64,000 nucleotides of DNA from positions 24,242,001 through 24,306,000 of the forward strand of contig NC_087256.1 in assembly GCF_037042905.1 (NCBI RefSeq), read 5' to 3'. The position numbers and the translations under genes were made by a program. The DNA comes from Lytechinus pictus (Eukaryota). Position 1 is the stretch's first letter. Every line of letters starts with the position of its first letter. This document shows positions 14,301 to 62,118 of this stretch, in pieces. Under the pieces are notes generated by a model. The model did no database searches and was not told the DNA's origin. It worked only from the letters and a program-made list of their open reading frames with translations.

Positions 14301-17300
14301 ATGACTACGTTTTGTGTCCATCGGCCAGTGGGACCAAGCCTTTACCAAGATTTCGGAGATCGCCATAAACTCATTTTCTCACTACTTTTTTAGAAATAGA
14401 GACGAGTCTACATGAATAAGGCAACCTTTTCAGTCGATCAGAACAAAGCAGTTCTTCAGAACTTGGGCCCTGTTCTTAAGCTTCGTTTTTAAGCGATTCT
14501 GATTCTGGCCTTGAAATCAGAGGGTAGTGTGTTCTAATCACTGGCGTAAATCCGTGTTGAGGGGTGGGGGGGATGACTGAAATATTTTGGCATTTTTTTT
14601 GCATTCATGTTTTTAGATATGCAAGGAATTGTAATTGATATGTCCACAATGGCGTACCGTGGGTCACGGTATTGTGGGGGCACCAGCAAAATTTTTGAAT
14701 CACTGAGTGAGCGCGCGAAGCGCGCTCAGTTGCTAGTTATTCTGACCTAATAGAGACATTTTAAGGACAATGTCATTGAACGGATATGTATCTCACTGAT
14801 CAAATAATGCGAGCGCGAAGCGCGAGCTGAATTTTTTTATATTCACACCTAAAAAGGGACATTATAATCAAATTTGCGTAATCATGATAGTTACCTGTCT
14901 CGCTAAACAATGCGAGCGCGAAGCGCGAGCTGAAATTTTCGTATAATTTGACCCCAGCAAACAGCGAGATTTTAAGGAATATATTTTAGGAATCCATTAA
15001 GAGTATGCATATCTCACCATAGTCATCTAATGCGAGTGCCAAGCGCTTGCTGATTTTATTAGAATTACATCTGAACACATGAAACACTTTTTGTAGTCAT
15101 TGCAATCATGATTATCATACGCACCTCACTAATCAAATATTGCGAGCGTGAAGCGTGAGCAGAAAATTTAGATAAGTTAGATAATTCAGACCTGAAGTGG
15201 GGCATTCTAAGGTTTCTTTGTAGGAATTAACTTGGACCATACGTATTTCATTAACCAAATGATGCGAGTGCGAAGCGCGAGCTGAAAATTTTTGATATTC
15301 AGATCAGAAAAAGGGACATTTTAAGGACTGATTTTAGGAATTCATGAAGAGCAGACATATCTCACCAATCCACTAATGCGAACGTAATCACAGACAGGAA
15401 ATGTTTTTATATATACGAAGACCTTAACATGGGGCAATCACTTTTTGAGTTATGTAAAAGAAGCATATGCCTATGTCACTACATAAAACAATGATAACTC
15501 AAGTGCTAGGAAATATATTTGGTTTATATTGACTTGAAAACGGGATGTTTTAGTACAACAGGATTATATATCTCGTTGAACAGACAATGCGAGCACCAGG
15601 AACAATGAAGACGTAGGCCCTGGGCAAATTATGTTTCATAAAGTTATGATAAAAATGTTTCTTATGTAATGTAACATAACATAATTATAATATGATATAA
15701 CATTATAATGAATAATACTTTCTTTTTTCCCACTACGTTTCTTTTCCTTTCTCCCTCTTTTCTCTTTTTCCCCATTTCCCCGGGGTTTTTTTTGTCAGCC
15801 GATGGGGGGAGCATGTGCCTCCCATGCCCCCCCCCCCCCCCCGTAGTTACGCCACTGTATGTCCATATGGCAAATACCCCTCCAATAGTATTATCTTTTA
15901 CCCCATGATGGTTTAATGATTTTATTAGAGATTACATTCAAAAAATTTTGACATTCAATCTTAATCCCTTCCCAAAGACCCCAACATCGATGAATTGGAA
16001 GAAACGGGGGTTTCTCTTCAATGTTATAATAAGGACATAAGTATTTCGTTTGGAAATGGTGAACTGGCTCTTTATTTGCATTTTATGATTCAATAATATT
16101 GTTTTATTTGTTAAGCGGTATTTTAGGAAGAATTTTCACCAATAAAACAATTATCTCTTGTGATTTTTTTAAATTTCTTTCGTAAAAAGTGGGGGGGATG
16201 ATTGTACAGGCCATCCCCCCCTCCTCGAAAAGTGGGGGGGATATATCCCCCCCATCCCCCCCGGGATTTACGCCAGTGGTTCTAATCCCAACGCTGCCGC
16301 ACGTCCTTTGGCAAAGAACGAATCCAACATTTGCCATTCTACACCCAGGTGTTAAATGGGTACCCGGTAGGATTCAAAAGCCCATGTTGTAAGCCCAGGC
16401 CAAGCACTAGCAACTGAGTCTTAAAACTCGTGTTGGAATGATTACAGGGAGTGGGAAAAGTGCTTTTTCTGCGAGCATGCTCGGATTCAAAGACCCGGTA
16501 ATATATCTAAAGTGCTTAGAGACGTTGATCCGATGTATTAAGCGATATATTAAAAAAAACAGCATTATCATAATGACTTACGATCTTGGTCATTACAATC
16601 GTTAAATCATGTTTGCTGTACATTAGTGTATATATATATATATTATTTTGTCAAGTGCATCGTGTGTGAATATTGAGTGATCATAATGATATAGTTTCAT
16701 ACTTTTCATCCAATCAACATAAAACTGATCCATGATAGTTAATGAGATCAATGGTTACGCTGTATTATATTTTTGACGATGGTGATAATGAAATGGTTTA
16801 AATATATTCATCGCCTGTAATCTCCCTTACCTGTTAATGCAAGACACACGCCCACAACTACAACATTAGTTGAAAAGGCACATATGAGCATGCAAGTCGA
16901 GCCGAGTATTGCTCCTCCTCCGGCGACCAGTCGGTCGTTCACCCTTTCTAGTATTAGAGATACAAGTGGACCTGCCAAAATAAATAAATAAACTTGTTCT
17001 TATTCTTCAAGAGGACGAATTAGGTGGTCTGTCATCATTTTTCATTCGGTGTCGGTTGATGTATGAAATGACTTATTTAGATAATTATTATTTACTTGAT
17101 AATCTTGGTCATAGACATCATGGGAATCAATTTTGACCATGTTAAACGTGATTATTACAATTGTGATGATAATCGTGATGATTATCATGACAGGAAGATA
17201 GGATTTATGAAATGAAGTTTGAGGCACATAATATACTTTGATGAATTCTTCCAAAAGTTCAGACTATTTTACCCAAATTGGCTCGCTCAAAATTGCAAAA

Positions 17301-35877: not shown

Positions 35878-38600
35878 CATGGTGTCGATCGGTATTCTTG
35901 ATTGGGGGGGATGATTGACACAAATATTCTTGTGGATGGGGATCTTATAATATTACCCCCACTAAAATCACAAGTTAGGACATTTAGGAGTGGTTGATAT
36001 GCATGGTGTTCTTGGAAATCCCTTCATTGTTGCAGTGTATTGTATTTAAATAATTTTTTTTTAATTCAATTTGTGTTATACAAGTAAGCCCAGTGGCGTA
36101 CCGTGGGTCATGGCATCGGGGGGCACCAGCAAAAAATTTGAGTCTGTGAGCACGCGAAGCGCGCTCAGTTGCCAGGTATACTGACCTAATAGACACATTT
36201 TAAGGACAGTGCCATATATTAAACAGATATGTATCTCACTGATGAAATAATGCGAGCGCGAAGCGCGAGCTTAAAATTTTTGATATTCGGACGTAAAAAG
36301 GGACATTATAATCAACTTTTTGTAATCATGATACGTACCTATCTCGCTAAACAGTGTGAGCGCGAAGCGCGAGCTGAAATTTTTGTATATATTGACCCCA
36401 AACAGGGAGATTTAAGGACTATATTTAAGGAATCCACTACATATCTCACCACAGTCATCTAATGCGAGTGCTAAGCGCTTGCTGATTTTGTTGAAATTAC
36501 ACATGAAGCACTTGAAGTCATTGTAATCATGATTATTAACATACGCATCGCAATAATCAAGTATTGCGAGCGCGAAGCGCGAGTTGAAAATTTAGGAAAT
36601 TCAGACCTGAAAAGGGGCATTCTAAAGTTTGTTTGTAGGAATTCATTAAGACCATACGTATTTCATTAACCAAATGATGCGAGCGCGAAGCGCGACCTGA
36701 AAAGTTTTGATATTGAGATCAGAAAAAGGGGCATTTTAAGGACTGATTATAGGAATTCATGGAGAGCAGACATATCTCACTAATGCGAACATAAGCACGG
36801 ACAAGAAATGTTTTATATTAAGACCTTAAAATGTGGCAATCACTTTAAGTAGTCATGAAAAGAAGCATACTATTGCACATAAAATAATAATTCGAAGTGC
36901 GAGGAAGTATATTGAAAACAGGAGGTTTTAGTACCACAGGATTATATATCTCGTCAAAATTAAACAGACAATGTGAGCACCAGGAACAATGAAGACATGG
37001 ACCCTAATCAAATTATGTTTCATAAAGTTATGGAAAAAAATGCGTCTTATGTAATATAACAGAATTATAGTATAATATAACATCATAATGAACAATAATT
37101 TCTTCTTTCCCATTACATTTCCCTTCCTCTCTCCCTCTTTTTCTCCTTTTCCTCGTTTTTTTTTTGTCAGCCGATTGGGTGCATGGGCATGTGCCCCCCA
37201 TGCCCCCCCCCCGTAGTTACCCCACTGAGTGAGCCTATTCTAAACTCATACGAAAGAAAAAATGACAAAAATTGTCTGGACCATGTACAAAGTGATCTGT
37301 TTATTGAGCATGATGTATACAACTTCTCTCTTAAATCTAACCCGACTGGCAATATCTTTTTTCTTCTTAATGCATGATGATAAAATGCAGATTCGGACAA
37401 ATTAAGACTAACACAAATTACAAACTGTGTGGCTTCTCGTGCGCCATCGGGCTTACCGTCATTCCTTAGACAATTTTAACCCTGGATTTTAACACGTTTT
37501 AAATGTTTTATAAGTGCATGAAACAAAAACAAACATAAAAACAATCAAAACTCAACTGTCATCTTATGATATTTCTCCAACATCTTCTTGACTCATCAGT
37601 GTGTAATATCAGTTAATATATGTGTTAAAATGAAATTAACATACCGCATGAGTGTGCTCATATAGAATGCAAAACTGTCATCCCTTTCCAAACTCAAAAA
37701 AAGATTTCTTTTTGCCAAAATAAGAAAAAATCAACCAAGTTTGGTTATTCAAGTCCATGACAATAACAAGAATAACATGGCAAAAAACCCCTCCGATGTT
37801 CATATTCGAAGATACGCTTTAGAGAGAAATGAATGATTATTCTTTCTGAGACCATAAATTGATTTCACTTATTAAAAAATTGTAAAAATATGATCATATT
37901 ATATTGAGCTCACTGAACCTCAATATTTTCATGAGAGGTATCTGATGGGGTCACATGATAAAATGTTTAATATTCAAAAGGGTTGTAGATTAAATGGGAC
38001 AAACATCATGCACTTGGATGTGGGGAGGGGTAAATCTGAGAAAAGTTGTTTGTATTTTTTCAAGATCTACCCCTCTAGGATTTACGTCCATGGAGGTTTC
38101 CCTGTTTATCTTGCCACCCTTTTCCACCCGTTTATTTTTCCACCCTTTTGAATTAATTGATTTGTTTAAATCAATTTATTCACCACTGGTGGGATGGAAC
38201 ACCCTATCAACAAAAGTTTTTTTTCGTCGGGGTCCTTTTATGTCATGTGTTTAAAAAATATCATATACCGGTACATAAACATTTCATTCATTTTCATCTT
38301 GAACCTGCACCCATCTGTTTAAAAGTCCTGGAAAAGAATGTTTTTATTTAATAACAATATACACAAATTGCGAGGGAAACAAACTGATTGATGGCATACT
38401 ATAATCATCACTATAATCATCATTATCAAACTTTTCATTTTTTCATCATCATTATTACAATTTTTCTACCCTGAATTATTTGGGGGGGGGGGGATGATAA
38501 TACAGGCCATCCCCCCCCCACTTGAAATATTGGGGGGTATATCCCCCACCCCCCCCACCCCCCCCCCACCCCCCCCCCCCCCCCGTGATCGACACCCATG
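35878..38600. mobile_element. Non-autonomous hAT-type element (outer)
   Basis: TIR CATGG(G)TGTCGATC; perfect 8-bp TSD CCGTCGGG (35870-35877, 38601-38608); subterminal sequence resembles 14539-16278. Confidence 0.85.
36091..37227 (+). mobile_element. CAGTGGCGTA-family hAT-type element, nested in 35878-38600
   Basis: Homologous to 14647-15857; TSD AGTAAGCC/AGTGAGCC. Confidence 0.88.
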
Positions 38601-39661: not shown

Positions 39662-40847
39662 CAGTGGCGTAACTACGGGGGGGGCATGGGGGGGCACGTG
39701 CCCCCCCCCCCCCCCCCAATCGGCTGGCCAAAAAAAAAAAAAAAAAAAAAAAACGGAGAAAAGGAGGGAGAAAGGGAAAGAAACGTAGTGGGGAAAGAAG
39801 AAATTATTGTTAATTATAATGTTATATTATATTATAATTATGTTATGTTATATTACATTAAAAAATCATAACTTTATGAAACATAATTTGCGCAGGGCCT
39901 ATGTTTTCATTGTTCCTGGTGCTCGCATTGTCTGTTTAACAAGATTATGTAATCCTCTGTACTAAAATCTCCCGTTTTCAAGTCAATATACACCAAATAT
40001 ATTTCCTCGCACTTCGAATAATTATTGTTTAATGTAGTGCAATATGCTTCTTTTTCATGACTACTTAAAGCGATTGCCCCTTTTTAAGGTCTTAATATAA
40101 ACCATTTCCTGTCCGTGCTTACGTTCGCTTTCGTGGATTGGTGAGATATGTCTGTTCTTCATGAATTCCTAAAATCAGTCCTTAAAATGTCCCTTTTTCT
40201 GATCTGAATATCAAAAATTTTCAGCTTGCGCTTTGCGCTCGCATCATTTGGTTAGTGAAATACGCATGGTCATCGTGAATTCCTACAAGCAGGCCTTAGA
40301 ATGCCCCTCTTTAAGTCTGAATTTCCTAAATTTTCAGCTCGCGCTTCGCGCTCGCAACATTTGATTAGTGAGATGCGTATGATAATCATGATTACAATGA
40401 CTACCAGTGCTTCATGTGTTTAGATTTATATTATTCTTACAAAATCAGCAAGCTCTTGGCACTCGCATTAGATGACTATGGTGAGATATGTATACTGGAT
40501 TCCTAAAATATAGTCCTTAAGATGTCCCTGTTTGGGGTCAATATATACAAAAATTTCAGCTCGCGCTTCGCGCTCGCATTGTTTGTTTATCGAGACAGGT
40601 ATGTATTATGATTGCAAAAATTTGCTTATAATGTCCTTTTTTAGGTCTGAATATCAAAAAAAATTTGCTCGCGCTTCGCGCTCGCATTATGTGATCAGTG
40701 AGATACATAACCGTTTAATGGCACTGTCCTTAAAATGTATCTATTATGTCAGTATACCTGGCAACTGAGCGCGCTTCGCACGCTCTCTAAGTGACTCTAA
40801 ATTTTTGCTGGTGCCCCCCCAATGCTGTGACCCACGGTACGCCACTG
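39662..40847 (-). mobile_element. CAGTGGCGTA-family hAT-type element, reverse orientation
   Basis: TIRs present; perfect TSD GATGTGTC (39654-39661, 40848-40855). Confidence 0.9.
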
Positions 40848-41162
40848 GATGTGTCTACATAGGTCACATGTTAGCCTCATATTATTACGCAATAAACGTA
40901 GTCCTGATTAATTATATTTCAGGAAGTACGAAGAACCATACATTTTTCACGTTCCCATGCCTACTCATATTTTTGCTTATTACACCTTAGGGCTCCTATA
41001 GTCACTGATCTTGGCCCCGTAACTAAAGCTATTCATTGCATTGTTGAATTGAACTTTAGCTTGATTGCATTCATCATTATGAGCAATCAAGCGAACACGT
41101 CAACAATGCGATCACTCCCGGCGCTTTGTGTTAACGGACGATTTGATGACGTCACATGTTTC

Positions 41163-43167
41163 TTTGAATAAATGAATCTTTATTTCGTTTCAATTCCGAT
41201 ATCAAACAACAATAATAACAACAGTAAATTATTGGGATACAAGTAAATAGCAAAGAACAAAAGTAAATAATCACAGGATAATATACATAATACATGCACT
41301 ACTTTTTATGGAACATAAACACCCATGAGAAGAGATGGAAATGAAACGTGGTGACCTACTAAGAAGCTTAGCTTGTGGGCCATAGGCCACCAGCATGTTA
41401 AAAACTTACATTAGCAATCATTTTAAAACATCATAGAACAAGTAAACAAAAAATTGGAGTAAATAACCAAAGTACAGATATACATATTTACAAAAGATAC
41501 ACTAAAAAGTAACAAAAAGGTGAAATGCAGAATGCAAGCATTCTATTACACCTAAAGTATAAGAATCTGAAATTCGAAAAGAAGAAAGAAAAGAGGAAAA
41601 ATAAAGAAAATAGGCAGAGCTCTATTTTTGCATAGATAATTGTGGGAAGAATACAATTTATAAAGTTAGACGAGATATAACAAGCAGGCATTTGTTTACT
41701 GATTTAAGTATTTCTTCAGTAAATCGGTCTTTAACTTGTTTCTAAAAACACTAAGGCTAACTGATTGCTTCAATGAAGAAGGAAGGGAGTTCCATAATTT
41801 TGGCCCTGTATAAACAAATGTATTTAGCCGAAAACTAGTTTTGACCAATGGCAAGTGGAGAAAAGAAACTTGTCTTGTATAGTAAGAATGGATTTGGTCA
41901 TTTCTAACACATAGTGAATCAAGGGCAAGTGGAAGTTCTCTTTTATTTAATTGATACATAATGCAACCAAGGTTGAGATCAAATATATCATGTAAATTAA
42001 GGAACTTGTTTTCATAAAACAAAATATTAGTGTGAGATCGTGAATTTACTCCACATACTAGTCTAAGTACCCTTTTCTGGACTTTAAATAACCCATCTAA
42101 ATGAACTTTAGCAGCGTTACCCCAGGCAAGGAATATACTCTTCAATGAATTAATGACTCCTGAATTTCTGGAAAGAAGTTTACATAAATAGGATATGTGA
42201 ACTTTCCAGTTCAGCTTACTATCAATGTGTACCCCAAGGAATTTTGTACTCAAGACTTCAGTAATCTGAACATCACTGATTGTAATATTATCTGGCAATG
42301 TTGCTAGGGTGTTGCTGAATAACATGTAGTTTGTTTTAACAAGATTTAAGGAAAGCCTGTTAGCAATGATCCATTCGTTAACAGAAATCAATTCTGAATT
42401 GATAGTTTGCAATAAATTGCAGGGGTTCTTTTCAGAAAAAAAATATGCTTGAGTCATCTGCAAACAGGATAAATGAAAGGATTTTTGATGACTGAGGGAA
42501 ATCATTAATATATATGAGAAATAAGATAGGTCCAAGGAGTGAACCTTGTGGCACTCCACATGTAATTGACTGCATGGGAGACTTAACACCATTTAAAAAT
42601 ACAAACTGTTTTCTATCAGAGAGGTAGCTCTTGAACCACTCCAAAGCCTTACCCCGGAATCCATAGAGAGATAGTTTTATTATAAAAAAGGATGTCATGG
42701 TCAATCGTGTCGAAGGCTTTGGAGTAGTCTAGAAATATACCGACAGTATGTGGCCCATTATCTCTTGCGGAAGAAATTTTGTCGATAAAATGTAACAGAG
42801 CATGAGAGGTTGTATGTTTTTTCACGAAAACCAAATTGTTCAGGATATATTATATTATTAATTTTCAAAAATTTCATAACACGAACAGAAATTATCTTTT
42901 CAAGAATTTTAGATTAACATGTAAGAAGAGAGATGGGCCGGTAATTTCCAACTTCCTGAGGGTTTCCCTTTTTGTAAATCGGCACAACTTTGGCTATTTT
43001 CATACTCAAAGGAACGATTCCATGTACAATAGATAAATTGAATATATGAGTAATAGGAGAAACAATAACATCAATAACTTCTTTAATAAGCTTATTAGAT
43101 AGGCCATCATACCCAGCAGCCTTATTTGTTTTCAAATTATGAACAATGTCAATCACTTCTTTTTCAA
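41163..43167 (-). mobile_element. 5'-truncated, decayed LINE (CR1/L2-group ORF2 reverse transcriptase pseudogene) with 3' UTR
   Basis: Frameshifted fragments: [72 protein letters not shown] (plus TTTATT 41179-41184) near the 3' end, with ATTC-like tail. Confidence 0.9.
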
Positions 43168-46100
43168 CGTGGTGATCCTCGAATGCGTTCTCAATAAGAC
43201 AACGGTGATGATCAGGATCACCAAAGAAACAAAGTGAAAAACACCAATGACCATGAAGACCTTAGTGAAGGACTGAGTTAGGTCGAACAGATATCCTGAT
43301 AGAGGAAGAGAAAAAGATTTAAAAAAAAAAACAATGAAATTCGATAAATACCATCGGTACAAGTTGAATCAATCATCTTCTACCACCAATCGATCACGTG
43401 TTTGACATCACATACCATAAAACACTGCTGAAGAAACGTAGTACGTTATTGATCGAAATCATTTAATAGAATTAAATGCATAATTTTGTATAGATTTGCA
43501 AATCGTATCATGAGTTGAGACCCCTAGTCTACCGAGGGTTGATACGAAGGTTCATGGATTCGAATCCCAGCCACAGCATTATTTCCTTCAGCAAGCAATC
43601 GATCCACATTGTGCTTAACCCAACAGCACAAAATGGATACCTGGCAGGAATTCATTCCTTGAAATGGATGTGCGCTGTAGAAGACTTTCCAGGCTAACTC
43701 CAGGGTAACATAAAGTCCTTTGTAAGCGCATAGAGACGTTAGATGAAAACGGGAGATGCTTTTCTACAAGAATGAACATTATCATTACAATAACTGTACT
43801 AGAATATTGATGGAAATTATCATCGTCACTCAAATGTCATTGAGATGACATTTAGTCAATCCCGGGAGTCCTTTGTGAATGTATAACGTTAAAATCGAAA
43901 TTAAGTATATAAATACAAGTACCTGTCATGTAACCTGCTGAGGTTGCTCCTAATCCAGTAAAGAAAAATAGCATTGCAGAAGCTCGCCTGAATTTGACTG
44001 GGTCTAATGAAGTCTTCTTTACCATGGCAAAGGGCATAGTGTCTTCAGTAAAGAAACAGATGCCTTGGACGAACGCCAAACCAGCCCGTACAGGATACCC
44101 TGATCCGACGAAGTCGAGGAGAAAAGTCAGGGTGCAGACAATACTGACGGGAATGTATATCAGGAAAGGATCGACGTTTTTAAAAATGAGAATAATGAAT
44201 ACTGTTCTTCCTAAGATACCACCAATACCTGCCAAAGAAGATAAAAATACCGCATGTGAGCTGATAATTCCAAGGGATTCGGCATGGGGTACCAAGAACA
44301 GCATCCAACTGTACAATGCATATGAGAATAGGTAAAACGACGGCATGTTCAACAAGACCAGCCAGTCATGAAACGTAAGACCTCTGCAACAGAACGTATA
44401 CCAAGGTTCGGTATTGCCCTTCGATGTCCCTGCAGACGTCCCTGCCAGCTTGTCGTCGTCGTCTTCTTCGGTGATCAGTGGTAAGTGTTCAGTGGTCACA
44501 GCAGCATCAACGTCATCAAGCCAAATCTCTGAATGATCAGATCCTGCACTGCTTGACTGATGTTCCTGAGAAGGAATATCTTCACCCCTTGATCCCAGAG
44601 CGCTGTTATTTTTCGGTCGTATAAGCTTACTTGTCATCTCGCTATCTGTTCGGACCAGTCCCATTGTATTAGCTTCAGGACAATGACTTTTAATTTTCGT
44701 CATGATTGGTTTACGGATTATTGCAGCACACACCATGACGTGAAAACCAATACCGGCTAAGATCAGAAAACTTCCGTGGTACCCGTAAGCCTCTTCCGAT
44801 CTTTCTACGATGAACGGTATGAAGGTTGCACCTGCAGTCAGACCATACAAGGAAAGCGTGTTCATCATAACAAAGTTATCAGGGAAATAGTCATTTATGA
44901 TGAGCGCTGCGGGCAGGTAAATACAGGCAAAACCGGTCCCTAAAAATAAAATGGTGATAGAGAGAGGGGGATAGTAAACGACAGGTAAACTAAATAATAA
45001 TAATAACATGTAATATTTGTGTACCACTAAATAGAATGATTTTAATTCCTGCATTACTCCTACTTTTACCTCGGCTTCAGCACGGCTACCCTGATCGCGC
45101 GCTCGAGCATTCAAGATTATTTTTCCTACGCGGTCACAACACTTGGGTGGAAAGTGGCAAAGTGTAGATAAATGACTTGCCAGAAAACTGCCGGGGGTTA
45201 CATTTCTGAGAATTATCTAATGAGCAACACCTTTACATGTAGGCCTATAGCATCAGGTTTTATAAAAGAATGAAGAACAAACAGCTTGAATGAATTATTC
45301 AAATAAAGTGAAATTGATACACTAGAAATGAACTAGCCCTTACATCTTAACCAGGTACTATTCCACTATTGATCGAATGGCATATCTTAGACGATAGACA
45401 CACAGATATTTCGAACTATCTTGATCTTGAAAGTGTGAACAATGATTCAAACTCTACATCAGTTCATATCTCGTCGTCCTATTGTCTCCTATACTCTCGC
45501 CAATCTATCGACATGGACTTCAAAAAAATCCTTGATATCTAGTATTTCACCAAGAACTCGGAGATCGCCATGGAATAATTTCCTCACTACTTGTTTATTT
45601 GCCGGCCAGATGGAACCGGACAGGATGATTCTTCCTGCAAGGGTCAAAACTGTGGTGTCCATCAGGGACCAAAATAGGCCCTCTTCATTTTCGCCCTCTT
45701 AACGATTTACGAGGATCAAGTGAGCTTTACTTTGAAATAGAGACGGGTCTGCATAAGGCAACCTTCTCCCTCAATCAATCGAAACAAACAAACCAGTTCG
45801 AACTCGTTTATAATAACATCTTTAACGCGCTTCCTATTTTTATGTCGTCCCGATGTAATAAGCGCTACATAAAAGCGGAATATCATTATCATAAGGAATT
45901 GTCACTTTAATTTTGTAATATCATGTTATCTGTACACTAGAACAATAAGTTCAGTGGTCACGTTTTGATATGTTGCTTTTTTAATGATGATAGTAAAATA
46001 TTGTTAAAAATATATTCATCGCTCGTGATCTCCCTTACCTGTTAATGCAAGACCCACGCCCACAACTACAGTATTAGTTGAAAAGGCACATATGAGTAGG

Positions 46101-48793
46101 CAAGTCACGCTGAGTATTGCTCCTCCCCCGGCGACTAGTCGATCGTTCATCCTTTCCAGTATTAGAGATACTATTGGACCTGTCAAACAAAGGGAAATCG
46201 TTACACCATGATTTCGATCAGAATTTCATAACAGTTATAATCAACACTTCAATTTGAAATCTCCTGAACGTGCATGACATTATTGCAATCAATCATTCGA
46301 TGATGAATATTATATATATTAGCCAGAAACAGTTATGATATTAAGGCTATGAAATACATAATGTGTGTTTTGGACACGTAATTTTTTCGTCTGCTTATAT
46401 TTTATTTATTCGTTAATCGTTATATAAATCCTCTTCCCAAACATGGAATGGGCTGAACACTTCGGGATATAATATTTGTCAGTTTAAATTGCCCATTTCA
46501 AAGATTTATTTTCTTTTTAATTTTTTTAAAACCAGTATAAAAGAATCGACGCTTGAGAAAAAAAATGACGCCCACTTCAATTTTGAACATTGAAATTTTG
46601 ATGTCATAATTATACTAAAGTAAGATTTACATTAATACCGAAGCTGGCTTGTGATTGTGTAACGTCATTTCGTCATCTCTGTCACGTCCGTGCTCAATGA
46701 CCAGCCCTGAATCCAAACCTAGCACCTTTCCACTCAAAATTTGAACGCAACTCGATTGTCATGATGTATGATTTTGTTGTGGCAGGGATCAAGGGGGAAT
46801 GGGGTCAAGCAGTGGCGTACCGTGGGTCACGGCATTGGGGGGCACCAGCAAAAATTTCGAGGCACTTAGGGAGCGCGCGAAGCGCGCTCAGTTGCCAGGT
46901 ATACTGACCTAATAAAGATATTTTAAGGACATGCAGTGCCATTAATCGGATATGTATCTCACTGGTTAAATAATGCGAGCGCAAAGCGCGAGCTGAAAAT
47001 TTTTGATATTCAGATCTAAAAAGGGACATTATAAGCAAATTTGTTTGTAATCATGATACGTAACTGTCTCGCTAAACAAACAATGCGAGCGCAAAGCGCG
47101 AGCTGAAATTTTTGTATATATTGACCCTAAAAAAAATTTAAGGACTATATTTTAGGAATCCATTAAAAGTATAAATATCTCACCATAGTCATCTAACACA
47201 TAAGCACTTTTGTAGTCATTGTAATCATAATTATCATACGAACCTCACTAATCAAATACTGCGAGCGCGAAGCGCGAGCTGAAAATTTAGGAAATTCAGA
47301 CCCGAAGAGGGGCATTCTAAGGCTTGTTTGTAGGAATTCACTAAGACCCTACGTCTTTCACTAAGCAAATGATGCGAGCGCGAGCGAGAGCTGAACATTT
47401 TTTATAAGATCAGAAAAATTGACAATTTAACGACTGATTTTAAGAATTCATGAAGAGCAGACATCTCACCAATCCACTAATGCGAACGTTAGCACGGACA
47501 GGAAATGTTTTATATTAAGACCTTAAAATAGGGCAATCACTTTTAGTAGTCATGAAAAAGAAGCATATGTCACTACATAAAACAATTATAACTCGAATTG
47601 CGAGGAAATATATTTGGTGTATATTGATTTGAACACGGGAGGTTTTAGTACAACAGGATTATATATCTCGTTAAACAGTCTATGCGAGCATTAGGAACAA
47701 TGAAGACACAATGAAGCAAATAATGTTTCATAAAGTTATGAAAGAAATGCTTCTTATGTAATATAACATAACATAATATAATATAACGTTAGAATGAACG
47801 ATAATTTCTTCTTTCCCCACTACTTTTCTCTTCCTTTCTTCCATTTTTTCTCTTTTTCCCCGATTTTTTTTTTTTGGCCAGCCGATTGGGGGGCACGTGC
47901 CCCCCCCCCCATGCCCCCCATGTCCCACCCCCCCCCCCCGTAGTTACGCCACTGGGGTCAAGGGACCTTGCTCTCTGTTGTGGTGGTCCTTGACTTCTTT
48001 ATTGTTTTGGCAGAAAAAAATCAAAGCTGTGCATGCTCTCCCTCCCCCCCCCCCTCGACATGCTCGATAAATCCTGGATCCTCACTTGCCACTATGTTTT
48101 TGTGTTTGTGTGTGTGTGTGTGATTTTAGATCGGGGAGTGGTAGGGGGGTACCCGCGTTAACCCACCTTCTAAAAATATCCTAAACAGGTACGCTTTGCA
48201 TTTAAATATTTTAGAACATTAACAGCGATTTGGCACCTTTGATCAAATTTCTCACCAAAAATTGGCAAATTATCGACAGTCGGCGAAAATGTCTCTACTT
48301 TATAGATTTTTTTAAATCCATGATATTATATTGAAACCCGTTGATTACATGAATATCAGAGCTACAACAGAAAATAATTTCCAATTAACGGGTTAGGTTG
48401 GGGTGCACACTTTATGTTGCACACGGGAGGAAAGGGTAATACATGTATTCAAATTGCACATGGGCGAAATCAACGTCAATATTATCATTCTGGTAAAAAA
48501 AATGTGAATACCTGAACAAATACAGGAACTTGCATATTGGTATTTTAGTGTGGGGCTCATCGTCATTCAAACATGAAAACCTACTTACTTGCGAGGTATG
48601 TGAGGGTGGATGGTAGGCTGCAGATGAACCCAACAATGGTGAAGCTTGAGTTTAATTTCACCACCATCTCATTGAGAAGAACACCAAACGATTTCGCGAT
48701 GCCTCCAACAATGATCAGAATAACAAATTTACAAAATACGAGAACGTACCCCCGCCGCCAATTCAAAATAATTCCTTCCGATGGCGGCTTCAT
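43153..48793 (-). CDS. SLC16/MCT-like transporter, diverged paralogue, copy 4 (exons 48793-48589, 46179-46039, 44939-43923, 43295-43153)
   Basis: Homologous exons with conserved splice sites and many substitutions (e.g. FCKFVILIIVGGIAKSFGV). C-terminus RITTLKKK* runs into LINE sequence. Confidence 0.87.
46810..47954 (+). mobile_element. CAGTGGCGTA-family hAT-type element in intron 1 of copy 4
   Basis: TIRs present; perfect TSD GGGTCAAG (46802-46809, 47955-47962). Confidence 0.9.
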
Positions 48794-55200: not shown

Positions 55201-58200
55201 CTATACAGTACACAATCATTGCGAATTATGATCCCCTCGAATTAAAATATCATCATTGATTAACATAATTTCTTTAAACATATTTATATCTCTCTGCAAA
55301 TATACTTCTCGTTGGTATATCTTGTCATAGCTACTATCGAGAGAAGAGATAGAATACATAACCCAAGATGGCGTCGTCCGTACCTCATCCGTTAAATCAT
55401 GGGGCTTGGATCGTATTGATCAGCGATATCTACCTCTAGACGGGACAGCAGATTTTACAGGTATTAACATATTCACACTGCAAAAACACCGGTGTTGATT
55501 TAACACCAACTTGGTATCTATATCGGTCCACATCAGAGAGGTGTTGAAAAAACACCGGTTTGGTGTTAGGCTAACACGAATTCAGCATTTATGCAACACC
55601 AATTATTGTTAAACTAATATCGGTTTGATTCTTAGATACTTGGCTCGTGTTAAATCAACACCGGCGTTTTTGCAGTGCATCTATGATATCTGCAGAGGGT
55701 GTTGTATGATATTATTTAATATTTATGAGATTTGACCAATGAGATTTGATCAAACAAGAATATATACATATATGTTCAAAATAAATTATAAAAGCTGAAT
55801 AGCGAGACGTATTATTCAGATCATGAAAGTTATATCCATGTCTTATGAAAAAGGTGCGCAATGTACGAAAGGCATTCTACGGGGTCGCATTAATATAACT
55901 TACGGGATGTGCCCTCATCTTTTTCTTTTTTTAATTCAGAGCCTTTAAATAAATTATGAATTAAGACTAATCATCTGGCACATGGGCCTATGGACATCCT
56001 GGGAGGGGTAATCAAGTAACTCTTTCTTTCTTATCCATCTTAACAGGTGACGGTACAGGTATCCATGCGTATATCATCGACACAGGGATCTATCCTGAAA
56101 GCGTATACTTTAATGGCAGAGCCAGTGTTGCCTTTGATGCGTACCGTGAAGAGGGGGCTGAAGATTACGTGAGTATTTATATGAGGGATTATTTTGAAAC
56201 TAGTTAGTCCGACGATTGGTGTGACCAATGGACGTAGAGGGCGTCAATGGCACTTTATGCTCGTTAGGTGTGACGACGAAGTATACTTCGGATACAATTC
56301 AACCGACGACAATTAAGAGGGAGAAATTACCACATCAGATTGGGATGCAAAATGAACACCTTTATTCAACAAGGCCTAGGCTGAACATGCCGGCTAATAT
56401 TTATACAATCATATGGTAGCTTCAAACAAACCAAACACAAACATTGGCGTAATACATTCTTCTTTCTTCCATCTTCATCTATGGAAAGCGAATTACCCAA
56501 ACACTGTGCTGCACCGAATTACAAGCACTACATTCTAGACTAAACAACCCTACAAATCGCATGATTCGAGTATCTAAAATAGTTCAAGTATTTCACTAGA
56601 AATCTGCATAAAAAGCACAAACTAGTATGTAACAACACTGCATGTATGGCCATGAACATGTTAAACAACAAACCTACACAATCAAGTAAAAAAAATACAA
56701 TACACGTATCTGCATAACTCTAGTTAGACTAGTATACTACAAAAGGCAATAGCTAATATAAATATGCAAGTTTAAAGGCATGTAAACTGTTCATTAACGT
56801 TAAATGAACAAACAATACCTACAACAACCAATATACAAATGCTTCTTCGTCCATCAACTTCTTACCGTGCATGACCACAAAAAAAATTACACAAAGGCCA
56901 AACATATGCTTAAAAAAAATACATCTATAAGGTATTTCTAAATTGACCAATATCTACTCACATTTCCATAACAGCGTGCCATTACAGGTAAACACAATAG
57001 TCAACCAATAAATCCGAATCAAAAGTTATTCCTTCCAATAGTTAAAAAAATGATGATCCATATTACTATCCCTCTTAATAAAAACAAATTATACACAGTA
57101 ACCATAAACCAAAATTCAAAACCGTAAAATTCAGGCATGTCGTGAAAAACAGTTCTCTCTTCCACTTGACCTACACTGATAAACCGTGTAAACAAGCTGA
57201 AACACATCTTAACTATGATATGCACTGTTGTGCCACCTGTATATCATAATTGTAAGGAACAATACAAAACAGGTACCTGTAACAGGGCGTATACAAGCTA
57301 AAAAACAAGTAAAACCAAATCTAAAAGGCATAAACACAAATTATGCACATGAAAACAGCTACACCATGGAGCGAAAAGGTGCGATCAAATATACTGGAAA
57401 TATCACAAATGAGGCCTTCATGTACATAAACCTGTCAACAATAAAAATCAAGAGTTCAAATCTAAACTATCAGTATTAAACAAAACAATAGCATAAAATT
57501 CCATTATGTAATAAGCTTACGGCTTACATCAGTATCCCAAAATAACAATAGCACAATCATAACAAACAAAAATATCTCACTCAAGGAATATTTACAATTT
57601 TTTTTACACAACTTCACTGGTCAGTGTTAAGTCCAATAAAAACTTACATGAGTACCCTTGGCTATTGTTAAAAAAAAATAACAAAATGTATGACAAAAAT
57701 AACCAACATAAATAACTGTACAGAAATTAAACTATATGTGTACAACTGGAGGCCCACTGCACCACCAACTGGTAAAAATAAAAAAACGATATCAAACTGG
57801 ACAAGATTAAAACATGTCTAAAATACTAACAGATCATGTGGTTATGGCATTAACATTAAAATGATAAAGAAACCAACAAAAACACTGTCATAAATATACA
57901 AAGACAAAGATTACAAATCGACAAGGAATAAATCACCATCAATATAGTCAATAACTGCGAATGTTCGAAAAAAGAGTAACAGCGGTCAAGTGAAAACAGT
58001 AAAAATAGTCCAACAATTCTTGCGGCGTAGAATGCGACGTGACCGGCTGCTGCTAACTAAAAACACTGATGCAGGGGACAGGCTGGGGGTGTGGAGGGGC
58101 CGGGGGAGGTGGGGTAATATCCGGCGCATAGCTAGCAAAGCGACCTATGTCTGGGCCTATGTCTGGACCTATGGACAACAGGTGTTGTTCCGAAGCAGAC

Positions 58201-61200
58201 CAAGTAGCGATGAGGGGTTACCTCGAGGATCATATAGAGCAGCGGCCATGGGGACCCAAGGTCGCGAAAGTCCATAGGCAAGTCGTAGTGAGGCCATCAA
58301 AATTCCTGTAGTAGGGCCCATCTTGAGGGTGGTGTGATGACAATCTCGGGCAGTTCCACTGGTACATGAAGTGGAGACATCGCGAACACGTTGGACGTCG
58401 GGGGGTCGACCCATGGGAACCGAGATGTTGGTACTCATAAGAACTGTACCCAGGCTGGGGATCACATCAGAGGCGGTATCCCTCACAGGCTGGTAGGTGG
58501 AGTCATCATGGTATCGGTCTAGAGGACATTGGAATTCCTCATCCTGGACAGTGGTGGCTATGGCATCAACCACAAAAGAGCTGGAGTGAACAACACCATG
58601 CTGGTAAATATGGACATCTGGGGGGTGTCCTTGGGGGACCAGGGCATCCTCAAGCTGAAGAGAATGTGGTGGATCCTGACGTAGATCAGGGATGGTACTT
58701 TGCTCAAAGCAGTCCATGGTGAACTTCCGATCAGCACCTGGATCAATGGCTCTAGTTGGGTTAACTGGAGATAACTGAATGTGAGACGATGGCTCGAGCA
58801 TATACAGGCGCAGTTGATGTGTTGTCATGTCAACGGAGGTACTGCTCGCTTGGCTGATAGCGAGACCGGCTATTCTATCATTCGTACATGCGAACTGAAC
58901 GGAGGTATTGTTAGTTTGGCCGATAGCGAGATCGAGAACGGCTATTCTATCATTAGAACATGCGAACCGAACAGAGGTATTGTTAGTTTGGCCGATAGCG
59001 AGATCGAGAACGGCTAGCCTATCGTTCGAATGTGTGAATCGAAAACGAGTGCCTGTATGTGAATGGTGCATGCACTGTTCGGGCGTGTGATGAGTGAACA
59101 GTGTATCAGAGCGCAAGAGCCTATCAGCCCCGTCAATGCAGGTAGAAGTTGGCACAATCTGGAAACCAGGAGTACTGCCAGGGATAACTGACAAGTCTTT
59201 GCACGTTTCATCTCTCTCTGATGAACCAACTTAGCGAACATTGCTATCAACAACATCACAGAAATTCAACTGATCTTTACTCGCACCAAGTGTGCAAGTG
59301 CCTGATAACATGTCAAGTGAAGGGGGATCACATCCCAGTCCAACAGTGAGTTCATGACCTTGGAAACGATCAGGCTCCGATAAACAATCATCATCGGTAG
59401 GAATACCCGGATTACATACCACATCATTGTGAGAACCATGATCATCATTAGCTACATGCATTGCCGACAACTCAGCAGCGCAACCATCAAGATTAACAGA
59501 ATGTGTTACAAGGTCGGTTAAATCTAAATCTCCGGACGATATAGCTCTAGACCCATCTAACTCAACGCTAAACCTCGAAGAATCGCTAGTGTGAACAGGC
59601 CTACTCCAATCACCTGTCACTCCAATGTTACGACCATAATGAAACACGTCATGACTACTTCTTCCATCTTCTCGCAAAGCAACGTCATCAACATCACGAC
59701 TGGGGATACCACCTTCGTCTGCATGTACAAAGCTAAACTCCTTGGCATTGTCTTTACGTTTATTTTCATCACTTCCTTCATCAGATCTCAACTCATCATT
59801 AACATTGTCTTCATGTTTATTTTCATCACTTCCTACATCACATCTCAACTCATTATCATTGACATTGTCTTCATGTTTATTTACATCACTTCCTTCATCA
59901 CATCTCAACTCAATATCATTGTCTTCGTGTTTATTTTCATCACATCTTTCAACGAATCTCAACTCATTATCATTGACATTGTCTTCAAGTTTATTTTCAA
60001 CACTTCTTTCATCACATCTGAACACATTGACTTCATATTTATTCTGATCACTTCTAATTCGATCATTACATCTGAACTCATTATCATTGACGTTGTCTTC
60101 GTGTTTATTTTCATCACTTCCTTCATCACATCTCAACTCACTGACATTATTTTTCTCACGTCCTGCATGTCTCAATTCATTGTCATTCAACTCATCTTCA
60201 CAACAATCAAGACTTTGAGTGTGACTGACATGATATTGGTAATTGTCATTAGCTAGCATTTGTCTGTCAAAACCAAAATGTATGCAAACAAGATCCCATA
60301 TGTCTGCAAGGGAAGTGGACTTATTTACAATAGAACCTCTGGCGATAATCGGGCAAGAAGCTGAAATTTGCCCCAGCATGAGTTCCAAAACCACAACTTT
60401 CTGAGCGGCTGTCTTACCGCCAGCAACGTCAAAGGAATCGTCAACAAAACCCCGTACGGTATTTGCCTTCGACTTCCTTTGCCATGAAATACTCTCCGAT
60501 AGAAAAGGCAAAAAATCAGTGTATGAACACAAATTCATCATTAAACTACGCTTCCACTCTAGGAAGGATTCGGGAGTCTCGTACCGACTCAACCTGCGCA
60601 ACTGTGCGGGCGCTTCCGCTGACTGCGTCATCGTATCGTACTATACGTGAGGCTATCAAAGCGTTACCTGTGTGTCGCTAACGCTGATGGAGCGATGAAT
60701 CAGCCAGTTCAAATTGCAAAAATCACTACAGCTATAGTCCTAAACTGTCGATGCGTGACCCAGTTTTGGCCTAAAAATTCCTATGTGGCAGGGAACGAAC
60801 CTAGCGCTGACACCACGACAATTAAGAGGGAGAAATTACCACATCAGATTGGGATGCAAAATGAACACCTTTATTCAACAAGGCCTAGGCTGAACATGCC
60901 GGCTAATATTTATACAATCATATGGTAGCTTCAAACAAACCAAACACAAACATTGGCGCGAAAGTTATGTCTGGTATAGACCTAGTTTCGGTACGTGTGG
61001 CTGCTGGTCACTGATTTCCCTATTTCAGATTTGCATGACATTACTGAGACAAATTACTAGTATACGAACAAGAGAAGGTTATTCCATAAATTATGTGTAA
61101 GATTATTCATAATGTGTGCACGGTATTTGTGGGGTCAGGGAATTAATATTGTTCTAAGATTGGTAGCTTGTTTCGGTTTTGCTTTGGTTGGTCGGGGTTT

Positions 61201-62118
61201 TTATGGGTGCCAAAACATCTAAGAAATATCAGTTATAATCACATTATTTATTTCATTATTTGAGGCAACATATAACTGATTTGATCCTTACAGGGCATTG
61301 ATTGCAACGGCCATGGAACGCACTGTGCGGGAATCATAGGCGGCGATGAATACGGAGTGGCCAGGGGTGCCAAGCTCTTTGGAGTGAGGGTGCTGAACTG
61401 CAAGGGGTCCGGTCCAACTAGTGACGTCATAGCAGGTATTAATATCCCGTCACATATAATATAAAAAGCACTAACACATGATGGTGTAATGGTTCCTCAG
61501 GACTAGACCATTGTGATTATTAATGGTCACCCGGTGCAGTCCTGTGGTGTTAGTGTTTGTGCTGAGGGTTGGAATAAGGTAACATAACCTATAGCTCGAA
61601 CACCGAGTGTTGGTGTATATAGGCCTACAAAAACGATAAGCCTCTTTCATTGATGCCTCAAAGCTTCGACTGGCATCCATTGCAGCAAGGCCTTATGCAG
61701 ATTTGTTTTAGGGGGGGCAGGACACGTAGCATTTTTTGAAGAAACTCAAAAGCAAGGAAGAGAAGCGACCGAGCTTGTGATAGGGGCGTTTCTGCATATG
61801 GAGGATTCCCTTCTTTTGATTAATTTTGTGAAAATTTTTTTTAAACAAATGTAGGTTGTCTAAATTTGTTGCTTTCGACGCTGAAATTGAATTTAACAAT
61901 AATGTATTCTCGATGTTTTAATCATTTTGCCAGGTATTGATTATGTGACTGAGAACGGAAAGAAACCCGCCGTAGCATCCATGTCACTCGGCGGATTTTC
62001 CAATAAGGCTATGGACAATGCCGTGGAAGGTTTGATTGCAGCCGGTGTCACCGTGGTCGTGGCGGCTGGAAATTTTGATATGAAAGCATGTTCATTCTCA
62101 CCTGCTCGAGTCAACGAG
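52272..62118 (+). CDS. Secreted subtilisin-like serine protease, S8A proteinase K/aqualysin-like, with I9 prodomain; 3'-partial (exons 52272-52385, 54628-54777, 55331-55460, 56047-56168, 61294-61435, 61934-62118)
   Basis: Signal peptide [17 protein letters not shown]; I9-like [27 protein letters not shown]; mature [10 protein letters not shown]; catalytic Asp YIIDTGI; catalytic His [11 protein letters not shown]; SMSLGG; oxyanion VVVAAGN; ACSFSPA. Exon phases are consistent and all introns GT-AG. The catalytic-Ser exon was not found in the window. Confidence 0.92.
54985..55117. repeat. Imperfect (GAT)n microsatellite in protease intron 2
   Basis: Direct inspection. Confidence 0.85.
55476..55677. 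mobile_element. EnSpm/CACTA-type MITE in protease intron 3
   Basis: TIR CACTGCAAAAAC(A/G)CCGGTGTTGATTTAACAC; 2-bp TSD CA. Confidence 0.75.
56307..56449 (-). repeat. 3' LTR (143 bp)
   Basis: Identical to 60816-60958; preceded on the minus strand by GAAGATGGAAGAAAGAAGAA-TGTATTA. Confidence 0.9.
58169..59194 (-). CDS. LTR element ORF2, unknown function; in frame with ORF1 after one TAA; contains 24-aa repeats
   Basis: 341-codon open frame (tracked from a TTG); NDR(L/I)[15 protein letters not shown](R/Q)FAC(S/T) about 2.5 copies; no pol motifs recognised. Confidence 0.5.
   Translation of the reverse strand: MSVIPGSTPGFQIVPTSTCIDGADRLLRSDTLFTHHTPEQCMHHSHTGTRFRFTHSNDRLAVLDLAIGQTNNTSVRFACSNDRIAVLDLAIGQTNNTSVQFACTNDRIAGLAISQASSTSVDMTTHQLRLYMLEPSSHIQLSPVNPTRAIDPGADRKFTMDCFEQSTIPDLRQDPPHSLQLEDALVPQGHPPDVHIYQHGVVHSSSFVVDAIATTVQDEEFQCPLDRYHDDSTYQPVRDTASDVIPSLGTVLMSTNISVPMGRPPDVQRVRDVSTSCTSGTARDCHHTTLKMGPTTGILMASLRLAYGLSRPWVPMAAALYDPRGNPSSLLGLLRNNTCCP
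59231..60631 (-). CDS. LTR element ORF1: Gag-like N-terminal ~120 aa plus acidic 20-aa tandem repeats (466 aa)
   Basis: ATG ~180 nt after the PBS. The N-terminus ([59 protein letters not shown]) resembles, from recall, the N-termini of invertebrate LTR-retrotransposon polyproteins. It is followed by ([20 protein letters not shown])-like repeats. Confidence 0.7.
   Translation of the reverse strand: MTQSAEAPAQLRRLSRYETPESFLEWKRSLMMNLCSYTDFLPFLSESISWQRKSKANTVRGFVDDSFDVAGGKTAAQKVVVLELMLGQISASCPIIARGSIVNKSTSLADIWDLVCIHFGFDRQMLANDNYQYHVSHTQSLDCCEDELNDNELRHAGREKNNVSELRCDEGSDENKHEDNVNDNEFRCNDRIRSDQNKYEVNVFRCDERSVENKLEDNVNDNELRFVERCDENKHEDNDIELRCDEGSDVNKHEDNVNDNELRCDVGSDENKHEDNVNDELRSDEGSDENKRKDNAKEFSFVHADEGGIPSRDVDDVALREDGRSSHDVFHYGRNIGVTGDWSRPVHTSDSSRFSVELDGSRAISSGDLDLTDLVTHSVNLDGCAAELSAMHVANDDHGSHNDVVCNPGIPTDDDCLSEPDRFQGHELTVGLGCDPPSLDMLSGTCTLGASKDQLNFCDVVDSNVR
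60805..60815 (-). other. Primer-binding site, probably tRNA-Leu
   Basis: TGGTGTCAGCG directly after the 5' LTR; resembles complements of tRNA-Leu 3' ends (TGGTGTCAG../TGGTGGCAGCG). Confidence 0.65.
60816..60958 (-). repeat. 5' LTR (143 bp)
   Basis: Identical to 56307-56449. Minus strand begins CGCCAAT and ends ATTGTCG (6/7 inverted match) and contains TATAAATA followed by AATAAA. Confidence 0.9.

Follow-up and report, generated by a model that had tools for sequence, protein, structure and literature searches.

A probable non-autonomous Troyka element of Lytechinus pictus with a private stop codon in a frame for a predicted capsid N-lobe and acidic tail

When the reading frame of a retrotransposon is interrupted by a single stop codon, is the stop a programmed signal or a lesion? 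This question is raised by a long terminal repeat (LTR) element of Lytechinus pictus located at positions 56307-60958 (minus strand) of a 64,000-nucleotide stretch of contig NC_087256.1 (assembly GCF_037042905.1, forward-strand positions 24,242,001 to 24,306,000), here referred to as the window. A first-pass annotation had described two open reading frames (ORFs) in this element as one 820-codon frame broken by one TAA and had offered two explanations, namely, a nonsense mutation in a single fusion protein with a Gag N-terminal domain or gag-pol-like programmed read-through. We describe here that the element is very probably a non-autonomous Troyka LTR retrotransposon with a TAA private to this copy and that intact copies of the family encode one predicted protein of 788-884 amino acids, in which the N-terminal lobe (N-lobe) of a capsid is followed by an acidic tail.

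A stop codon private to the window copy

Translation of window positions 60631-58169 on the minus strand yields 821 codons, consisting of 466 codons, the TAA, 353 further codons, and a final stop. The only stops are codon 467 (59233-59231, context CGC TAA GTT) and codon 821. This bears out the 820-codon frame with one TAA, although the length of 820 is itself the result of a private lesion. Twelve in-frame codons separate the TAA from the 341-codon frame previously listed as ORF2, which has leucine as its first codon and in which the first ATG is found 53 codons past the TAA.

A DNA search of the genome recovered at least 14 copies, including the window copy. All 13 other copies have a sense codon, encoding the identical residue throughout, at the site homologous to codon 467; these include copies that are 99.3-99.6% identical to the window copy. 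Seven of the 13 contain a single open frame, and the intact copy nearest to the window copy shares 99.55% identity with it. Because the two halves form one ORF in these seven copies, their continuity in the window is not due to chance. The window copy has seven private substitutions, five of them inside the ORF. It is also the only copy in which a small deletion near codon 820 shifts the frame, and through this second lesion the ORF loses its last ~40 codons (the homologous end is at ~58053). Both of its lesions were read from genome assembly sequence. Together with the window copy, seven copies are broken, and the inactivating lesions are located at differing sites, with none common to two copies. 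Lone in-frame stops at other positions also split the ORFs of the sister elements L061, L068, and L070, and the stop-split layout therefore represents routine decay. The TAA of the window copy is thus private and most likely a nonsense mutation, as the first of the two earlier explanations held, and reflects ordinary decay.

Programmed read-through would provide a short and a long product in the style of gag-pol, and the same-frame continuation past a single stop speaks for it. The GTTGGT that follows the TAA is not a known read-through signal. The alignment of family copies, which had been named beforehand as the way to tell a fixed stop from a private one, refutes this explanation: none of the 13 other copies has a stop at this junction, the single stops of the three sister elements are found at unrelated positions, and most Troyka elements encode one uninterrupted Gag-Pol, according to the available part of the published description (PMC12440569). 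With a sense codon in every other copy, read-through of the TAA was rejected, and we regard it as extremely improbable. Alternatively, the TAA and the second break could be errors of sequencing or assembly in a copy that is in reality intact, which would explain why two inactivating lesions are seen despite identical LTRs and just seven private substitutions. However, ~3% of random changes produce a stop, so that with five of the seven private changes in the ORF one stop is unremarkable, and six other copies are broken too. Such an error is therefore very unlikely and, were the TAA one, would not rescue read-through.

A predicted capsid N-lobe and an acidic tail in a Troyka element

The element is 4,652 bp long and is bounded by 143-bp direct repeats, the 5' LTR at 60816-60958 and the 3' LTR at 56307-56449 (both minus strand), which are identical, start with CGCCA, and end with TGTCG. 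A 3-bp target-site duplication is found beside the 5' LTR (60959-60961) and beside the 3' LTR (56304-56306). Immediately after the 5' LTR is a sequence resembling a primer-binding site (PBS) (TGGTGTCAG..., 60800-60815, minus strand), which we take to be similar to the 3' end of tRNA-Leu; no tRNA gene was found in the window. At the other end, a polypurine tract (56457-56476, minus strand) lies ahead of the 3' LTR and is preceded by an AT-rich 3' non-coding region of ~1.6 kb (56477-58052, minus strand), which is strongly diverged, with ~60% identity between subfamilies in its core. The CGCCA start, the TGTCG end, and matching 3-bp target duplications are present in 11 of 11 tabulated copies (3 of the 14 copies are outside the table). 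Copies are 4.35-4.73 kb long when secondary insertions are excluded, and the LTR pairs are identical in 7 of 12 copies. In the available part of its description, Troyka is defined by 5'-CG..CG-3' LTR termini, a CGCCA start, and a 3-bp target duplication, with TGTCG listed as a variant 3' end (PMC12440569), and Troyka elements are treated as Kuafuorterviruses in the accessible portion of a second report (PMC11673190). On the basis of its CG..CG termini and 3-bp duplication, the element was therefore assigned to Troyka. Its size is in line with this: the LTR of 143 bp is within the range of 100-400 bp, and the internal region of ~4.37 kb is within the range of 1.5-7.7 kb.

The N-terminal part of the ORF is related to Troyka Gag. 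In blastp searches, residues 14-121 are 40-43% identical (E 1e-21 to 1e-27) to the Gag of two autonomous Troyka families from the same genome, which encode a single Gag-Pol of 1,618-1,645 amino acids with matches to protease (PR), reverse transcriptase (RT), RNase H (RH), and integrase (IN), in the order PR-RT-RH-IN, as well as to the Troyka knuckle (CX2CX8-10HX4C), and which have the same termini. While these autonomous relatives match eight Pfam families each, no Pfam family was found for intact copies, for either half of the window frame, or for six database proteins with a tail. The nucleocapsid knuckle is absent from the ORF, and neither blastp nor tblastx detected any similarity to Pol.

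A confident model of the autonomous Gag (pLDDT [predicted local distance difference test] 93, 66-row alignment) was used to place the end of this homology. In a VIA structure search, its best matches were the two-lobed capsids of Copia, dArc1, and PNMA2, with 156-180 residues aligned, a root mean square deviation of 4.2-6.4, and Z values of 6.2-7.3 (all Z values in this search were <8), and structures consisting of the C-lobe only aligned to the model from residue ~124. Foldseek returned nothing for this model at an E value of 0.001 or better, the top row being a Copia capsid with an E value of 0.27. Codons 1-121 (60269-60631, minus strand) of the non-autonomous ORF thus correspond to a predicted capsid N-lobe, and the Gag homology ends at the interlobe linker (residue ~121) of the modeled capsid.

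Beyond the Gag part, the ORF contains 670-760 unrelated residues and lacks the capsid C-lobe, the zinc knuckle, and Pol. This tail is acidic, with 139 D+E and 76 K+R residues in one 860-amino-acid copy, and contains two kinds of repeats. Tandem acidic D/E/N/C-rich repeats, which vary in number from copy to copy, occupy about codons 160-300 (59733-60154, minus strand). The downstream half of the family ORF, the former ORF2 (58172-59230, minus strand), contains 24-amino-acid repeats at 58832-59043 and two (R/H)PPD motifs. The end of the family ORF, with a proline-rich C terminus (58053-58171, minus strand), is severed in the window copy by the private frameshift near codon 820. A structure prediction, also proposed with the first-pass annotation, used the sequence of a natural, intact copy and an alignment of 9 rows but gave no usable model (mean pLDDT, 27.5), with helices confined to residues 20-128 and strands of low confidence in the 24-amino-acid repeats. 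The low confidence for the tail is compatible with disorder and equally with a shallow alignment. The earlier view, in which Gag is truncated and carries a long tail that is acidic and probably disordered, holds for the family. Two further features of this region were noted. A 231-codon hydrophobic frame runs antisense over the acidic repeats (59561-60256, plus strand) and is most likely a by-product of the codons used in these repeats. In addition, one subfamily (L019, L022, L023, and L025) has a PSAP motif 14 residues before the C terminus, presumably late-domain-like, while the other subfamily and the second family described below have PPAP; this is probably incidental.

Selection on the frame and a possible role in packaging

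Indels were compared in 12 of the 14 copies (all but L020 and L027, for which an LTR lies outside or is missing from the retrieved sequence) and substitutions in 11 (all but these two and L026). Among indels shared by at least two copies, 19 of 22 in the ORF preserve the frame, whereas 8 of 48 do so in the 3' non-coding region (Fisher p 3e-8). When only the part of the ORF past the acidic repeats is counted, the figure is 8 of 11 (p 6e-4). Of the three out-of-frame shared ORF indels, two compensate for each other and the third affects the last codon. Private ORF indels are in frame in 28 cases and out of frame in 16. No stop was found among 182 shared tail substitutions, for which 4.7-6.3 were expected (P 0.002-0.009). 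The first-pass annotation had also proposed comparing nonsynonymous and synonymous substitution rates (dN/dS) for both halves. In the main subfamily comparisons, pairwise values were ~1.0 for codons 301-466, compared with 0.61-0.69 for the former ORF2, with all intervals including 1, indicating little constraint on residues. Taken together, the frame of the tail is guarded while its residues drift.

A second non-autonomous family of the same genome shares this layout. It has four copies with an ORF region (L058-L061; G000 C2, C20, C13, and C9) and 109-bp CG..CG LTRs. The ORF is 649-657 amino acids long in three of the four copies; in the other, L061, a lone in-frame stop follows 222 codons. 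The N-lobes of the two families are 55% identical, and the tails are colinear and 22-33% alike, for an overall identity of 31-33%. Within the second family, dN/dS was 0.22-0.36 for the N-lobe (two of three intervals exclude 1) and 0.70-0.83 for the tail. Trees of the N-lobe joined the two Lytechinus families with a support of 96 in the Shimodaira-Hasegawa-like approximate likelihood ratio test (SH-aLRT). The ORF of copy L022 has a near-identical counterpart in an NCBI LOC protein model of L. pictus, and a relative of the second family is present as a LOC model in L. variegatus. Of the 150 top-ranking hits in a profile search, 74 run into a capsid C-lobe, 41 stop within 40 residues, and 34 go on into other sequence; the remaining hit matches the tail alone. 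Upon inspection of the protein sequences alone, and not counting the L. variegatus protein, 13 of those 34 carry a tail of 150-620 residues that has an acidic bias and begins at the same boundary. Three of these acid-tailed database proteins retain remnants of Pol, which suggests that the N-lobe-plus-tail layout may have arisen by an in-frame internal deletion followed by drift. With regard to the number of origins, quick trees required 6-7 label changes, and a single clade of such proteins was not rejected (p-AU [approximately unbiased test] 0.50; 17 versus 37 rows).

In light of these data, it is conceivable that the half-capsid protein is a cis-acting tether through which its own RNA enters the particles of an autonomous Troyka element, a proposal that we consider only slightly less than evenly probable. 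The helper would be an autonomous family with which the element shares the 3' end of the LTR. Since 7-11 terminal bases are common with autonomous family A and only 3 with family B, family A is the most likely helper; for this family, there are 14 full-length RT matches at ≥91%. The N-lobe would leave the ribosome and join an assembling helper capsid while ~700 further codons are being translated, and the nascent chain would thereby tie its own RNA to the helper particle. Selection would then act on the presence of an open frame of some length rather than on particular residues, and copies that lose the frame, such as the window copy, would be dead ends. Such a tether would account for where the domain boundary falls, why the frame is guarded while residues drift, and why no lesions are shared. 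Copies L019 and L022 are mosaics that switch between both subfamilies within the ORF, and such recombination between subfamilies would be expected of co-packaged RNAs. Of the two roles suggested in the first pass, "packaging parasite" would fit better than "dominant-negative modulator." Both halves of the idea have counterparts in the accessible portions of other reports: the gag-pol fusion protein of the mouse intracisternal A-particle (IAP) element 1-delta-1 is reported to work in cis (PMC6466679, PMC10924933), and RTL8, a gag protein consisting of the N-lobe only, enters PEG10 particles and lowers particle number (PMC11684626). How non-autonomous Troyka elements capture the helper machinery is not described in the available text of the Troyka study (PMC12440569). 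More broadly, and doubtfully at present, these proteins could represent a widespread class of non-autonomous Troyka parasites, in which an exact N-lobe and an acidic spacer of 300-760 residues are selected for translatability and the nascent chain serves as a tether in cis.

Several results weigh against a tether. For shared changes in the tail, the ratio of nonsynonymous to synonymous differences (pN/pS) is 0.89, with no clear purifying selection on residues. Tail dN/dS values of 0.6-1.07 in the main subfamily comparisons and N-lobe values of 0.41-0.57 between the subfamilies of this family all have intervals that include 1. Past the TAA, just four of seven shared indels are in frame, the remaining three being the compensating pair and the last-codon indel mentioned above, and the two subfamilies use different frames for one stretch near the C terminus. 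Shared and private ORF indels differ only at p 0.08. A single reference copy served for scoring the indels, which are not all independent events and include repeat units that are inherently in frame. Furthermore, the element itself drew only scattered reads in three RNA runs, ~6% of each of which was sampled and which came from animals possibly lacking this insertion. A complex prediction with two helper capsid chains and the N-lobe, run without alignments, scored 0.00 and points neither way.

The strongest rival to a tether in cis is that the frame is kept open for the sake of the RNA alone, which would escape nonsense-mediated decay or be stabilized or exported while carrying ribosomes, with the protein doing little. 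A tail pN/pS near 1 from which stops and frameshifts are purged, together with the tolerance of a compensated frameshift, would be explained in this way. We nevertheless consider it rather unlikely, because the N-lobe is conserved (between the families to a greater extent than the tails, with dN/dS below 1 in the second family), because many unrelated proteins break at the lobe boundary, and because shortening the RNA would be a cheaper way of avoiding decay. If the protein does matter, it could instead act in trans as a decoy that poisons or tunes helper assembly, as RTL8 does with PEG10 or p22 with Ty1. The domain boundary is of the RTL8 kind, and the RTL8 data cited above show that an N-lobe alone can enter particles, the number of which it lowers in the case of PEG10. 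However, the ORF is carried by dispersed, recently mobile copies (given the identical LTR pairs) that need a helper, the putative helper family has the 14 full-length RT matches noted above, and selection for the frame in shared, preinsertion changes is explained more easily by a benefit in cis, making a decoy an unlikely explanation. No more probable is a tail that functions at the residue level through short motifs, the two (R/H)PPD motifs and the proline-rich C terminus, for example, as a site for a host adaptor or as a means of slowing the ribosome. Both families and the tail homologue P0034 retain two (R/H)PPD motifs separated by 71-74 residues, and two to three motifs are present where 0.3-0.4 are expected (p 0.006-0.057 each, not independent). 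They are missing, however, from 9 of 15 other tail rows, some of which may be cut short; autonomous Pol also ends proline rich, so that the C terminus may be a remnant; and the tail as a whole has a pN/pS near 1. A tether acting in cis remains our preferred, if tentative, explanation.

Genomic surroundings and relation to known systems

The whole element is located antisense within a GT..AG intron (56169-61293, plus strand) of a subtilase gene (Peptidase_S8; PF00082, E 4.8e-8), with flanking exons at 56043-56168 and 61294-61437 (plus strand). The spliced host junction is supported by 8, 17, and 6 reads in three RNA runs, sampled as above, and by one contig of a fourth run. In run X1, in which the spliced host junction was also present, contigs cover most of the element and extend into the flank of copy L021 (G000 C16), which suggests a read-through transcript or DNA from that locus. 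Elsewhere in the window, a tandem segmental duplication (149-30062) consists of units of ~9-10 kb, mostly 97-99% identical, each with a minus-strand exon that presumably encodes a membrane protein of the monocarboxylate transporter type (no Pfam match at E 0.001). A fourth, more diverged copy of this duplication (88%) is found at 43631-45015. An interspersed repeat of ~1.2 kb is present in four copies in both orientations (14647-15857, 36090-37227, 39662-40848, and 47190-47919; 81-85% alike), and a 298-amino-acid frame at 41696-42592 (minus strand), without a Pfam match at E 0.001, is presumably similar to the C-terminal region of the RT of a non-LTR retrotransposon.

An ORF that breaks off at the lobe boundary of a capsid and combines a guarded frame with drifting residues offers a testable handle on cis-preference in the packaging of LTR elements. 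The data also suggest that many "uncharacterized" acidic proteins of 600-900 amino acids from marine invertebrates, such as the two NCBI LOC models, are products of transposons. Non-autonomous Troyka elements as such are already known and are common in sea urchins, from which 62 of 70 originate according to the available text (PMC12440569), and Gag-only LTR elements are known as TR-GAG. In the accessible parts of the literature, no ORF with an N-lobe plus acidic tail is described in Troyka, and Troyka is merely mentioned in PMC12859917; Repbase and the supplement of PMC12440569 may already hold the family.

In the portions available of the two Troyka reports (PMC12440569, PMC11673190), the points of agreement with the present element are the CG..CG termini, the 3-bp duplication, the 143-bp LTR, the internal region of ~4.4 kb, and the homology to the Gag of autonomous elements with a knuckle. 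As far as the accessible text on the plant TR-GAG elements goes (PMC4350172), these are similarly non-autonomous LTR elements with a PBS, a polypurine tract, and a single Gag-related ORF. However, TR-GAG1 encodes a 433-amino-acid Gag with a zinc knuckle in <4 kb, whereas the present ORF, from an animal host and the Troyka lineage, retains ~121 Gag residues. With a length of 4.35-4.73 kb, no Pfam match to Gag, and no knuckle, the likeness to TR-GAG is in layout only. The mouse IAP 1-delta-1 element is also non-autonomous and internally deleted and has one fusion ORF, translation of which is reported to aid mobilization in cis (PMC6466679, PMC10924933). It is an endogenous retrovirus with a recognizable gag and pol fusion, whereas the tail described here has no detectable Pol homology and its action in cis is a proposal. 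With RTL8, Ty1 p22, and Fv1, the ORF has in common one capsid lobe without the rest; RTL8 consists of the N-lobe only and coassembles with PEG10. Ty1 p22 and Fv1 are reportedly gag decoys that act as inhibitors in trans. These proteins are encoded by host genes or are by-products of autonomous elements and inhibit in trans, while the protein predicted here would be encoded by a parasitic mobile element and carries an acidic tail of great length.

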